32,000 bases of DNA from Candidatus Saccharimonadota bacterium (GCA_016699265.1 CP064967.1:90001-122000); one strand, 5' to 3'. Shown: positions 26,993 through 32,000, counted from the first letter of the stretch. Numbers and translations are program-made. The notes: generated by a model from the letters alone, not told the origin.

Positions 26993-27291
26993 CGGTAGTA
27001 CGTCAAGGCCTCAATTGGCCTTAAATAAAAGAAAGCATAGGAATTGCTCATAGAATTTGAAGCAATATCATTAAAAAAGCATTACTATATTAGACCAAAA
27101 TGCTCAAAATCCTATAATAAAGTTAGTATGCGTTTGAGGCTCTATGAAAATCCGAATTAATTAAGAATCATACCATCCATGATTTTATACAGACGTATAG
27201 TTTAGTGCAAATTAGTTTGATCGATTTGACCCTTGCAATTAATGAGTTTAAGCATATATATTTAGATATACATTGCAGCTATTTATTTTTT
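26993..27291. promoter_or_regulatory. AT-rich divergent intergenic region that must carry the ndk and ATPase-operon promoters
   Basis: It lies between divergent genes. One candidate + strand promoter is ttgcaa (27233-27238) - 18 bp - tatatt (27257-27262). The boxes are not resolved with confidence. Confidence 0.35.
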
Positions 27292-28068
27292 ATGAAAACA
27301 GTTAAGATATCTATTTTTTTCGGATTCTTATGTTTGATGACGCCTTTATTTACCTTCACCTATGCTCAGATTTCCTCATATAGCATAGCTCGATATATTG
27401 AGGTTAAAGATGAGAAGGTACCTTCCGGCTCACTGGTTTCACAGAATCCTGATGGAAGCTATTCACTTAGCAGAAAAGCCTACGACCCACAAACCAAGGG
27501 CGTAATAGTCGCCGATCCTTCAATCTATGTAAAGTCGGACAATCCTAACAAAAAGTATGCACTTACAAGCTCGGCAGAGGCTAGGGTTCTAGCAAACACA
27601 TCCAATGGACCGATAAAAAGAGGCGACCTGCTAAGAACCTCAACAACAGCAGGCGTAGCGGTTCGAGCCGATAAGTCGGGATATGTTGTTGGGACTTCAC
27701 TTCAAGACTACACAAATACAAATCGTACACAAAATGTGCTATTAAGTGTCGAGCTAAATATCCATTACGCGCCTTCCCCGTCAACTCTAGGATCTTCCTT
27801 GACCGATATATTCAGCTTATCTGCCTTAGCATCATACGAACAACCCCTAATTGTTTTCAAGTATGTGATTGCTGCAATAATCACGCTGCTCTCCTTCATT
27901 TTTGGATTCTTTTATTTTGGAAGAATAGCGAGTAAAGGAGTGGAGGCGTTGGGAAGAAATCCTCTCGCAAGTCGGGCTATTCAGTTCGGAATCATTATGA
28001 ACGTATTAATCACGTGTGTGATTATTGGTGTTGGAATTCTGGTCTCATTATTTATTATTCGTAGTTAA
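27292..28068 (+). CDS. Signal peptide, extracytoplasmic domain homologous to the fibre C-terminus, and a C-terminal two-helix hairpin resembling ATP synthase subunit c
   Basis: [26 protein letters not shown] is a signal peptide. 27376-27768 aligns with 16004-16390. The hairpin is [25 protein letters not shown] - [21 protein letters not shown] - [25 protein letters not shown], with an R-N-P loop (27955-27963). It is the first gene of the ATPase operon. Confidence 0.7.
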
Positions 28069-28076
28069 CCAAACCT

Positions 28077-28703
28077 ATGACCTATATCATTCTGTCTCTT
28101 GCGGTCTTTACTTTAGGACTCATTGCGGTGTATGCCTATTTCATAATCAAAAATGAGTTTGGAATTTCTAAGTATGAAAAGCATGCTAAGAAAAAAATAG
28201 ATGAACACATGAAACGGGTGATAAATAGTTCAGAAGCAGTTTTGAACGAATCGACCGAGAAAATGAATCGACTATTATCACAGACGAATCATTTTAAAGG
28301 CACTATCGAGTCTCAAGCAAAAATGATCTTCGAAGATTTTAAAGATAGGTATGTGGCTAGTCTTAACTCAGAGCTTGCCTCAGTAGAAAAACAATATGAG
28401 GAAGCGTTTTATCAAAATATGAAGGATCTAAGAAAGAAACTGGACGGCAGGTTTAAGGAACAGATGGACAAGACCGATGAGCTTGTGGAAGTTTTTAAGA
28501 AGACGCAGTTTGAGAACGTAACTAGGGAACTTGAAGCGTATAGAAAGCAGCAGGAGGAAAAAAGTGTGCAAGAACTACAGATAATTTTTACAAAAGTACT
28601 AGACGACGTGGTTAAGAAATCGTTAACTAAGGAAGATCAAAAAAGGCTCATATGGAGCTCCTTAGAATCAATAAAGAAAGATTTTTTTTCAGGTAAAAAA
28701 TAA
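28077..28703 (+). CDS. atpF: F-type ATPase stator stalk subunit b-like
   Basis: One N-terminal TM helix (IILSLAVFTLGLIAVYAYFII) followed by a long charged helical region. It sits between the c-like and delta genes. Confidence 0.6.
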   Translation: MTYIILSLAVFTLGLIAVYAYFIIKNEFGISKYEKHAKKKIDEHMKRVINSSEAVLNESTEKMNRLLSQTNHFKGTIESQAKMIFEDFKDRYVASLNSELASVEKQYEEAFYQNMKDLRKKLDGRFKEQMDKTDELVEVFKKTQFENVTRELEAYRKQQEEKSVQELQIIFTKVLDDVVKKSLTKEDQKRLIWSSLESIKKDFFSGKK

Positions 28704-30678: not shown

Positions 30679-31541
30679 AATTCATTAACAAAGAGATGCC
30701 GGTTCTACAAAGTTTGCGCACAATAGCACAGGTATATCAGGAAACATCAATTATCAAAATTCAAGATGTTCGTACTGGAGTCGTGAAAACACGAGATTAT
30801 CTTTCGGGACTTTCTCAGATCTATTCCGAACTTAAATCTGCACGTTCAGGGGAGATTGCTCGACTTAACAAGACAAGACAACACAATAAGACAGTGACCA
30901 ATACAGGCAAACTGCAAAAAACATTAATTATTTTGCTGTCTGCAAATACGAAGCTTTATGGTGCCATAGTCCAGGATGTTTACCAACTTTTTGTTGAGGC
31001 AATAAAAAAAGAACCAGATGCTGATATTCTTATTGTAGGAAGGTTGGGTGAACGGTTATTTAAGGAAACGGGATTAGAGCGAAAGCATCTATTCTTTGAG
31101 ATCCCTGATGCAAATCTACAGACCAATGACCTTGAACCAATTATTTTTCATATAGTTAAATACGAAAAGGTCATTGTGTTTCATGGAAAGTTTTACAATC
31201 TAATGACGCAGAGAGCGATAAGGGCGAATATTACGGGAGATGTAATGGTAGAGGAGGGTATGCTTCAAGAGAATCATGCGGTAAAGCAATTTTTATTTGA
31301 ACCAAATCTTGAGAAGTTGATCCAGTTTTTTGAAACTCAAATATTCGCCACACTTTTTAGGCAAACCGTACATGAGTCTGAACTTGCGCGCTATGCATCT
31401 CGAGTAAATGCAATGGAAGAGTCACTGCAGTTTATAAAAAGAAGACAAAAAGAACTTCAAGATGCGAAAAAAAGATTTACCCGAGCGAGTCAACAAAAAA
31501 AGCAATTAGAGAGACTTTCAGGAATGCGTCTCTGGAGGTAA
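30666..31541 (+). CDS. atpG: F-type ATPase subunit gamma
   Basis: The N-terminal helix (LQSLRTIAQVYQETSIIKIQ) and C-terminal helix (ELARYASRVNAMEESLQFIKRRQKEL...QQKKQLERL) fit gamma. It lies between alpha and beta and overlaps alpha by 13 bp. Confidence 0.75.
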   Translation: MQSLKFINKEMPVLQSLRTIAQVYQETSIIKIQDVRTGVVKTRDYLSGLSQIYSELKSARSGEIARLNKTRQHNKTVTNTGKLQKTLIILLSANTKLYGAIVQDVYQLFVEAIKKEPDADILIVGRLGERLFKETGLERKHLFFEIPDANLQTNDLEPIIFHIVKYEKVIVFHGKFYNLMTQRAIRANITGDVMVEEGMLQENHAVKQFLFEPNLEKLIQFFETQIFATLFRQTVHESELARYASRVNAMEESLQFIKRRQKELQDAKKRFTRASQQKKQLERLSGMRLWR

Positions 31542-31555
31542 CAAGCACAAAGGTA

Positions 31556-32000
31556 TGAAAGAAGGAACAATTACAGCTATTAAAGGTCAGATAATCGAGG
31601 TTGAGTTCCGCGAGGATAAACCCGCCATCAACGATATTCTAACTCTTGAAAACGATCCTACAGCTATTTTTGAGGTGTATTCTTCAGCGTCCGACGAATC
31701 ATTTTATTGCTTTTTGCTAAGGAGTTCTCAGCAACTTCAACGAGGCATGAAGGTTCTAAACACAAAAAAACCATTAGTAGTGCCTGTAGGTAAAGGTTTG
31801 CTTGGTAGAGTAATAAATGTTTTTGGGGAGCCTTTAGATGGAGAAGCTCCGCTTGAGAATCTTACCTACGCTCCTATTTCACCCACAGATATTCCATATG
31901 ATCACATTTCGGTGCCATCTGTATTCTTGGAAACAGGCATCAAGGTTATAGATTTTTTCTCCCCCATATTAAAAGGTAGTAGAGTTGGATTATTCGGAGG
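31556..32000 (+). CDS. atpD: F-type ATPase subunit beta, 5' partial (runs off the window)
   Basis: The ATG at 31556 follows aaagg. MKEGTITAIKGQIIEVEF...PVGKGLLGRVINVFGEPLDG...[24 protein letters not shown] leads into the expected GAGVGKT P-loop. The ORF is absent from the track because it has no stop in the window. Confidence 0.85.

Follow-up and report, generated by a model that had tools for sequence, protein, structure and literature searches.

We describe here an operon of F-type ATPase genes at positions 26,993 to 32,000 of a 32,000-nucleotide stretch of DNA from Candidatus Saccharimonadota bacterium (GCA_016699265.1, CP064967.1:90001-122000; "the window" below means this whole stretch). 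When it is completed with the corresponding contig of another assembly, this operon specifies all of F1 (alpha, beta, gamma, with a short epsilon) together with the delta and b subunits of a peripheral stalk, and a single fusion gene stands at the position of atpB and atpE, the genes for subunits a and c. The product of this gene carries an exported domain followed by a hairpin of two transmembrane helices (TM1 and TM2) which, to judge from sequence comparisons, derives from subunit c, with the loop that faces F1 kept and the ion site gone, and the complex is probably unable to move protons. We propose, tentatively and with a confidence that stays somewhat short of even, that this is a widely conserved form of bacterial F-type ATPase whose Fo has had its ion-translocating half replaced, the result being a hydrolysis-only motor with an extracellular rotor crown. 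The parts of this proposal should be judged separately: we consider the architecture (no subunit a and no working subunit c) to be likely, and we are more doubtful about the external rotary work.

A sequence-only reading of the window had drawn attention to this operon and had placed its genes as we find them, with boundaries of the open reading frames (ORFs) that were right to within a few bases. The genes, and the parts of the fusion protein, are as follows (aa, amino acids):

27292-28068, plus strand: fusion gene, first in the operon, 258 aa (signal peptide, exported beta domain, amphipathic helix, c-like hairpin)
27292-27369, plus strand: signal peptide of the fusion, aa 1-26 (sequence, alignment, and a helix at 2-19 in the AlphaFold2 model)
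27370-27786, plus strand: exported beta-rich domain of the fusion, aa ~27-165 (AlphaFold2, Foldseek, and Pfam near-matches in homologues)
27844-28062, plus strand: c-like hairpin of the fusion, aa 185-257 (TM1, cytoplasmic loop, TM2; profile and hhalign)
28077-28703, plus strand: b-like peripheral-stalk subunit, 208 aa (profile against solved b subunits)
28708-29181, plus strand: delta (OSCP), 157 aa, divergent (Pfam OSCP, E 4e-11)
29200-30678, plus strand: alpha, 492 aa from the ATG at 29200 (the TTG at 29191 is an alternative start)
30666-31541, plus strand: gamma, 291 aa (Pfam ATP-synt, E 1e-18)
31555-32000, plus strand: beta, first 148 codons (the end of the window cuts the gene)

The end of the operon can be read in contig L003, which comes from another assembly and is about 99% identical to the window over the 7 kb that they share, the first 400 bases excepted; beta is there 457 aa long and is followed by an epsilon of 86 aa and then by a sortase gene on the opposite strand.

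The fusion protein is the part of this operon that most needs explanation. Its elements follow one another in the order signal peptide, exported domain, TM1, positively charged loop and TM2, and it is predicted to have the orientation of subunit c, with the N-terminus exported, the loop inside and the C-terminus outside; with this c-like topology, the extra domain of every hairpin would therefore be displayed on the outer side of the membrane. The loop itself (ALGRNPLA) aligns with the ARQPE loop of subunit c, and in canonical enzymes it is this cytoplasmic loop of c that docks gamma and epsilon. In the alignment of the fusion family (26 homologues, 37-76% identical), G216, the segment L220-A226 (LGRNPLA) and N237 are invariant and R211 is near-invariant (at least 90%); the invariant Asn lies in TM2, 15 residues past the loop Arg (R+15). 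The comparison with subunit c was made in several ways. The Pfam family ATP-synt_C matches the window fusion at residues 194-253 only (E 0.005, with 17.5 bits against a gathering score of 24 bits), a profile of the hairpin retrieves almost exclusively c subunits of ATP synthases from the PDB sequences (E 0.04-0.9), hhalign matches the hairpin to a set of six canonical c subunits at E 3e-5 with a probability of 72%, and several members of the fusion family carry the JGI (Joint Genome Institute) label COG0636.

In the profile and hhalign alignments, the carboxylate column of subunit c falls on a variable hydrophobic residue of the hairpin. Indeed, not one of the 83 homologues has an Asp or a Glu at R+20, the ion site of c, a column which is again occupied by variable hydrophobic residues, and TM2 is free of any acidic residue in 78 of them; in the remaining five, the conserved Gln close to the cytoplasmic end of this helix is replaced by a Glu. 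By our own residue count, which starts at the loop Arg of c sequences taken from the literature, the Gln of the helix-1 ion site (R-13) also falls on an invariant Phe of the family. TM1 shows near-invariant A, S and G residues in the hairpin alignment.

If the hairpin has no working ion site, the next point is whether subunits a and c are present nearby. No other ORF of at least 40 aa between 26993 and 28077 resembles a or c, and Pfam ATP-synt_A is matched by none of the larger ORFs that were scanned across the 32-kb window. Phmmer and hmmsearch were then applied to every stop-to-stop ORF of at least 45 aa in the window and in 88 loci (1.24 Mb altogether): three queries and a profile for subunit a gave no match at E <=10, and two canonical c queries matched only the C-termini of the fusions. 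Ten polytopic ORFs that lie beside related operons were assigned by Pfam to the PilD peptidase, EamA, M50, GT87 and similar families, and never to ATP-synt_A. The scans of ORFs, Pfam families and profiles thus bear out the sequence-only reading in its central statement, that the operon has neither a subunit a nor a canonical c and opens with a c-like fusion. The same reading had claimed that both elements of the proton path are lacking from the membrane sector as encoded here, and this also agrees with our results, the ion-site carboxylate being absent from the hairpin in all 83 homologues and no a being found nearby. Since each locus covers 2-3% of a genome, the local absence of a and c is weak evidence for whole genomes.

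The same reading had supposed that the F1 and stator genes are functional, and judging from their motifs we agree. Alpha has the Walker A motif GDRKVGKS, as was stated there, and keeps its Arg finger (SVTRVG); GGAGVGKT, GERAREG and the Walker B Asp are intact in beta. Beta is also the subunit that looks most ordinary: it scores 470.7 bits with the NCBIfam atpD model, for a cut-off of 462.85, and its best solved relative is the F1 beta of Fusobacterium nucleatum (E 6e-125). Alpha is about one third identical to any canonical alpha, has an N-terminus about 10 residues shorter than canonical and falls below every curated cut-off, and gamma and delta are matched by their NCBIfam models below the cut-offs. 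The b-like protein consists of one N-terminal transmembrane helix and a long coiled coil; searched singly it has no match in Pfam or NCBIfam, and a profile of 29 homologues matches solved b subunits (E 7e-7 to 9e-5), including the C-terminal segment by which the b subunit of Bacillus PS3 binds delta. The C-terminal consensus of these b-like proteins reads VLGKS..DHE.LI..ALE.AK.EG.F, from which the window copy departs at several positions.

Epsilon is recognised by Pfam ATP-synt_DE_N (E 1e-6) and comprises the N-terminal beta-sandwich only: it matches positions 4-77 of an epsilon model of 130 positions, below the curated cut-off, and the median length of the epsilon ORF is 91 aa in this family versus 135-137 aa in the nearest canonical operons. 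In well-studied bacteria the C-terminal helices of epsilon inhibit ATP hydrolysis, and an epsilon without this inhibitory domain therefore fits an enzyme that works by hydrolysis only. Together, the divergence of alpha, gamma and delta from the curated models and the truncation of epsilon suggest, at the level of sequence, that these subunits are under changed constraints. An additional "alpha-like" ORF in locus L024 turned out to be Rho and was discarded.

This arrangement recurs, and is not a chance event. A scan for the loop motif, with one genome per species of the Genome Taxonomy Database (GTDB), found a relative of the fusion in 247 species; the loci that we examined are the best 80 of these 247 GTDB species loci, plus metagenome contigs, and the arrangement was seen in all 80 of the GTDB loci and again in the contigs. 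The best 80 come from metagenome-assembled genomes (MAGs) named Roizmanbacteria, Levybacteria, Daviesbacteria, Woesebacteria and Microgenomates, and many of these MAGs carry evidently wrong "Gammaproteobacteria" labels. Where a locus extends far enough, the order is nearly always fusion, b-like, delta, alpha, gamma, beta, epsilon, and the genes lie too close together for others to fit between them. In a large protein collection, two different fusion queries matched 267 and 641 clusters, respectively, and the same architecture exists in contigs whose alpha is 33-34% identical to the window alpha, one of these distant contigs having the diverged loop VISVGRNPMA. One MAG (CAYVAJ01) even has two complete fusion-type operons (L019 and L037, on contigs 10 and 2), each adjoining a giant protein (1311 and 1594 aa, respectively) with the exported domain. 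In the 5-kb contig L020, only the fusion, gamma and epsilon lie together (689-2675), with no alpha, beta, b or delta there, so that this cluster corresponds exactly to the presumed rotor parts.

Outside the family, the alphas that come nearest are those of further fusion-type operons (L084, L086 and L090), of canonical operons of Bacilli and Mycoplasmataceae (L088 and L089) and of an N-ATPase (L091). Two of these outside loci have features of their own: in L088 (Bacilli), delta is fused to alpha in a protein of 667 aa with OSCP and alpha domains (10001-12004), and L089 contains in-frame TGA codons, pointing to genetic code 4.

The exported domain of the fusion follows a typical Sec signal peptide with a conserved Ala-Gln at its end. 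The AlphaFold2 model of the fusion, built from the family alignment, has a mean pLDDT (predicted local distance difference test) of 80, with aa 31-160 mostly around 90. Compared with the PDB by Foldseek, the modelled domain resembles decoration or cement proteins of Sf11, Borrelia phage BB1 and cyanophage Pam3, and parts of phi29 gp8.5 and gp12 (E 2e-4 to 2e-3; target-normalised TM-score 0.5-0.66; sequence identity 10-19%). Two close homologues of the fusion nearly reach the Pfam thresholds of the decoration and cement families XM1_gp53_minor_capsid and Phage_cement (PF22758 and PF23982), the homologue P0008 scoring 26.0 bits for a cut-off of 27; the window fusion itself matches none of the Pfam decoration and cement families at E <=0.1. 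We would thus speak of a predicted resemblance in fold to phage decoration and cement proteins, and not of established membership in these families.

A profile of this domain also matches giant proteins, 780-3221 aa long, whose genes adjoin the ATPase operon in at least 11 related loci. In the window, profile positions 33-114 match the end of a 1600-aa ORF (11507-16309, plus strand; E 9e-14), and positions 116-153 match the start of an overlapping ORF of 282 aa (16287-17135, plus strand; E 1e-4); the two ORFs look like a single gene of about 1875 aa with a frameshift near 16290-16306. Elsewhere in the window, from position 1 to about 8000, there are dense coding-like repeats, with 12-13 near-identical units about 490 and 780 nucleotides apart. 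These units differ by single-base homopolymer lengths, the region has many medium ORFs, and its GC content is 0.47, versus 0.35-0.44 from about 17 kb on. The region is probably the gene of a giant surface protein rich in repeats, interrupted by frameshifts that may stem from assembly errors.

The mechanism that we propose for the complex is the following. The hairpins would assemble into a c-like ring, which would form the rotor with gamma and epsilon, and the stator would be alpha3beta3-delta-b2, held by the b helices. Without a carboxylate in the hairpin and without a subunit a, the enzyme would move neither H+ nor Na+ and would make no ATP from an ion gradient. It would only hydrolyse ATP; the ring would rotate relative to the stator and carry round the exported domains, which would form a crown on the outer side of the membrane. 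More speculatively, this crown might work on an external target (wall, fibre or pilus, or the surface of a host), and the giant neighbours that carry the same exported domain might be its partners. The domain shared with these giant neighbours, together with the PEGA, sortase, M23 and prepilin peptidase genes found around the operon, points to the cell surface, and according to a 2026 preprint, ATP synthase genes and a gene resembling those of tail fibres lie together with a new Candidate Phyla Radiation (CPR) pilus operon. In its most complete form, an ATP-driven rotary motor which delivers torque outside the cell through a crown engaging a giant fibre-like protein, the wall or the host, we consider our hypothesis to be improbable.

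A number of points weigh against the hypothesis of a hydrolysis-only rotary motor, and they should be weighed together with the alternatives. The homology between the hairpin and subunit c is moderately supported by the sequence comparisons. The formation of a ring and its rotation are predictions. Moreover, it is not obvious what would keep the b helices against the ring in the absence of a subunit a.

The main rival is a split operon, with atpB (a) and atpE (c) located elsewhere in the genome. The enzyme would then be an ordinary ion-coupled one, and the protein encoded from 27292 would be an accessory, would serve in assembly, or would be a surface protein unrelated to the enzyme whose gene happens to lie upstream. 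In other bacteria atp operons are known to be split, and our searches covered loci and not whole genomes. Two further observations are on the side of this rival, and thus among those that count against us. The first is in the COG table of Mahendrarajah et al. (2023, Supplementary Data 4), where the Curtissbacteria genome GCA_001776545 has no c (c=0), one AtpB (a) and a detected b, a row which allows for a subunit a elsewhere in the genome; the same table lists Woyke- and Pacebacteria genomes with complete canonical sets. Curtissbacteria do not appear among the best 120 of the 641 matches to the Daviesbacteria fusion query. The second is contig L011 (536 kb, labelled WWE3), where a fusion homologue of 340 aa with a short C-terminal extension stands alone (2656-3678), with no F1 genes within 10 kb downstream. 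We nevertheless think that the split operon is an unlikely explanation. The fusion occupies the position of atpE, directly before b, in essentially every locus, its c-type loop is an invariant block of eight residues, and in L020 it is clustered with gamma and epsilon alone. The short epsilon and the divergent alpha, gamma and delta suggest changed constraints, and the failure to find a or c in the 1.24 Mb around 88 operons goes in the same direction, if weakly, given the small part of each genome that a locus covers. We know of no arrangement in which a split parts a and c from b. If this rival were true, our finding would be much less unusual.

One can also imagine, as an alternative to which we likewise give little credit, a membrane-anchored F1 that does not rotate, in which a small oligomer of hairpins (for example a trimer imposed by the decoration-like domain) would tether F1 and hydrolysis would drive conformational or substrate work, as it does in the flagellar/type III export ATPase FliI-FliJ-FliH or in the gliding G1-ATPase of Mycoplasma mobile. 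F1 relatives are known that perform work unrelated to ions (the G1-ATPase structure 9io5 is among the PDB matches of alpha and beta, weaker than canonical F1). In three of about 85 loci (L050, L079 and L081, labelled Woesebacteria), the fusion directly precedes alpha and there is no b or delta, hence no stator; alpha is C-terminally truncated in two of these three. TM1 does not have the GxGxGxG packing motif of c rings, and bulky aromatic residues stand in its place. Finally, decoration-protein folds are usually trimeric and, by analogy, the oligomer of the fusion could be something other than a ring. All this fits a tethered F1; the hypothesis, however, leaves unexplained the conservation of a peripheral stalk (b and delta) in most members, and we know of no role for such a stalk except resisting torque. 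Gamma and epsilon are retained as well, with an invariant c-type loop, and the near-invariant small residues of TM1, which from our own reading of their spacing would lie on one face of the helix, are compatible with tight helix packing.

It is very unlikely, in our opinion, that the complex moves ions by a non-canonical path, without a classical a, through the invariant Asn of TM2 (R+15) and a near-invariant Arg or Lys of TM1 (R-11). The family-wide conservation of two polar or charged residues in or near the membrane is in favour of such a path. However, every rotary ATPase known to carry ions does so with a carboxylate (c subunits that have none are marked as non-catalytic in ProAD), the Arg is, by its position, near the cytoplasmic boundary, and none of the genes nearby codes for a possible half-channel partner. 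As for a decaying and functionless remnant of an ATP synthase, which the streamlining of CPR genomes (many of them without ATP synthase genes) might bring to mind, it can hardly be defended and is already effectively refuted by conservation, all seven genes being intact across hundreds of species, with invariant columns in proteins that are 36-76% identical and with intact catalytic motifs.

The surroundings of the operon in the window comprise the following features:

26993-27291, no strand: intergenic region of ~300 bp, between the divergent ndk and the operon
27091-27118 and 27233-27262, plus strand: putative promoter-like sites (consensus match only)
26360-26992, minus strand: ndk, divergent from the operon

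The first gene of the operon likely starts at the ATG at 27292 rather than at the GTG at 27205, because the homologous sequences begin there and a promoter-like site is found at 27233-27262. Recurrent neighbours of the operon (window 24967-26992 and related loci) are ndk, an M23 peptidase, a PEGA-domain protein, a sortase and the PilD prepilin peptidase; MreB and WecG also flank the operon in two loci that are only 44% identical. Further away, two paralogous proteins of the Beta-lactamase2 family (PF13354, E ~1e-39) are encoded on the minus strand at 20766-21701 and 23370-24311, around a glycosyltransferase and an epimerase. The ORF at 24413-24913 was considered as a candidate atpI (ATP-synt_I, E 0.012) and was rejected as a chance match: it has one transmembrane helix and is located 2.4 kb from the operon, beyond two genes of the opposite strand (the M23 peptidase and ndk), and no gene like it turned up beside the related operons.

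These results have to be seen in the context of what is known about ATP synthases in CPR bacteria. The CPR (Patescibacteria) have no respiratory chains, yet most of them are annotated with an F-type ATP synthase, and this retention is an acknowledged puzzle; many CPR are without the canonical complex (Mahendrarajah et al. 2023). In the searchable literature, whose coverage is incomplete, we found no description of a c fusion or of a missing a in CPR. If our hypothesis of a hydrolysis-only motor is correct, the enzyme scored as complex V appears unable to move ions in much of the class Microgenomatia, a group of ultra-small bacteria (at least 247 species representatives), and metabolic reconstructions which infer a proton-motive force or ATP synthesis from the presence of this operon would be wrong. 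A rotary engine that keeps its stator, drops the ion path and bears a folded domain on the exterior of its rotor would show what an F-type motor can become. The domain shared with the giant neighbours and the reported co-location of ATP synthase genes with pilus and tail-fibre-like genes hint that the complex functions at the cell surface or in contact with a host. A motor that delivers torque to the exterior, the most complete form of our hypothesis, would represent a new class of prokaryotic rotary machine, beside those of the flagellum and archaellum and the type 9 secretion motor.

It remains to compare this complex with the systems that it resembles. With canonical F1Fo (atpIBEFHAGDC) it shares homologous alpha, beta, gamma, delta, epsilon and b subunits, encoded in the same order, and an R(Q/N)P hairpin loop in the product of the first gene. 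It differs by having no a in or near the operon, a c-like hairpin with neither the carboxylate nor the Gln, a signal peptide and an exported domain of about 140 aa, an epsilon without C-terminal helices, and alpha, gamma, delta and epsilon subunits that fall below the NCBIfam equivalog cut-offs. It is an F-type ATPase by descent, with a beta that is an atpD equivalog, in which two canonical features, the c carboxylate and a nearby a, are missing.

The sequence-only reading had compared the operon with the F1-like X0 clusters of Mycoplasma, as a possible independent case. The functional analogy can be kept: the F1-like X0 complexes (MSC_0618/0619) and the gliding G1-ATPase also combine an F1-type engine with a non-canonical membrane partner, presumably for work other than ion transport. 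Membership cannot, since beta passes the atpD model and fails the MSC_0618, gliding and N-ATPase models, and b and delta are present. With the NCBIfam models MSC_0618/0619 and MMOB1660/1670, beta scores 407 for a cut-off of 570 and 369 for one of 850, and alpha 223 for 520 and 314 for 600; all four scores are also lower than those with the canonical models. The Mycoplasma F1-like clusters reportedly have no b, delta or c-like protein, all of which are present here, and they occur in a different phylum. Mycoplasmas hold these clusters alongside a canonical operon, and no canonical atp operon was seen beside the operon of the window. As far as sequences can tell, the complex is a member neither of the Mycoplasma F1-like X0 and gliding families nor of the N-ATPases, and the likeness with Mycoplasma is an analogy only. 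N-ATPases are also divergent F-type enzymes, and one of them (L091) is among the nearest outside alphas; they have, however, a different gene order (beta-epsilon-AtpQ-AtpR-a-c-b-alpha-gamma) and keep both a and a carboxylate-bearing c, and the scores with the alt_F1F0 models fall far short of the cut-offs (430 versus 752 and 293 versus 750).

Subunits c or K from which the essential Glu or Asp is missing are known in other systems (the non-catalytic ones of ProAD, one hairpin of Acetobacterium woodii c1 and a helix of the eukaryotic Vo c''), in which the carboxylate-free hairpins are either mixed with functional ones or rare oddities. ProAD counts 20 carboxylate-free c cases of the F/N type among 45,555 bacterial genomes. 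In the present family, by contrast, every copy lacks the carboxylate across hundreds of species, the hairpin comes with a fused exported domain, and subunit a is missing. Finally, the exported domain shares its predicted fold with phage decoration proteins (Pam3 gp6, XM1 gp53, Sf11, BB1 and the base of phi29 gp8.5), and differs from them in having no phage context: it is anchored here in the membrane of the cell, and the same domain is found in giant surface proteins.

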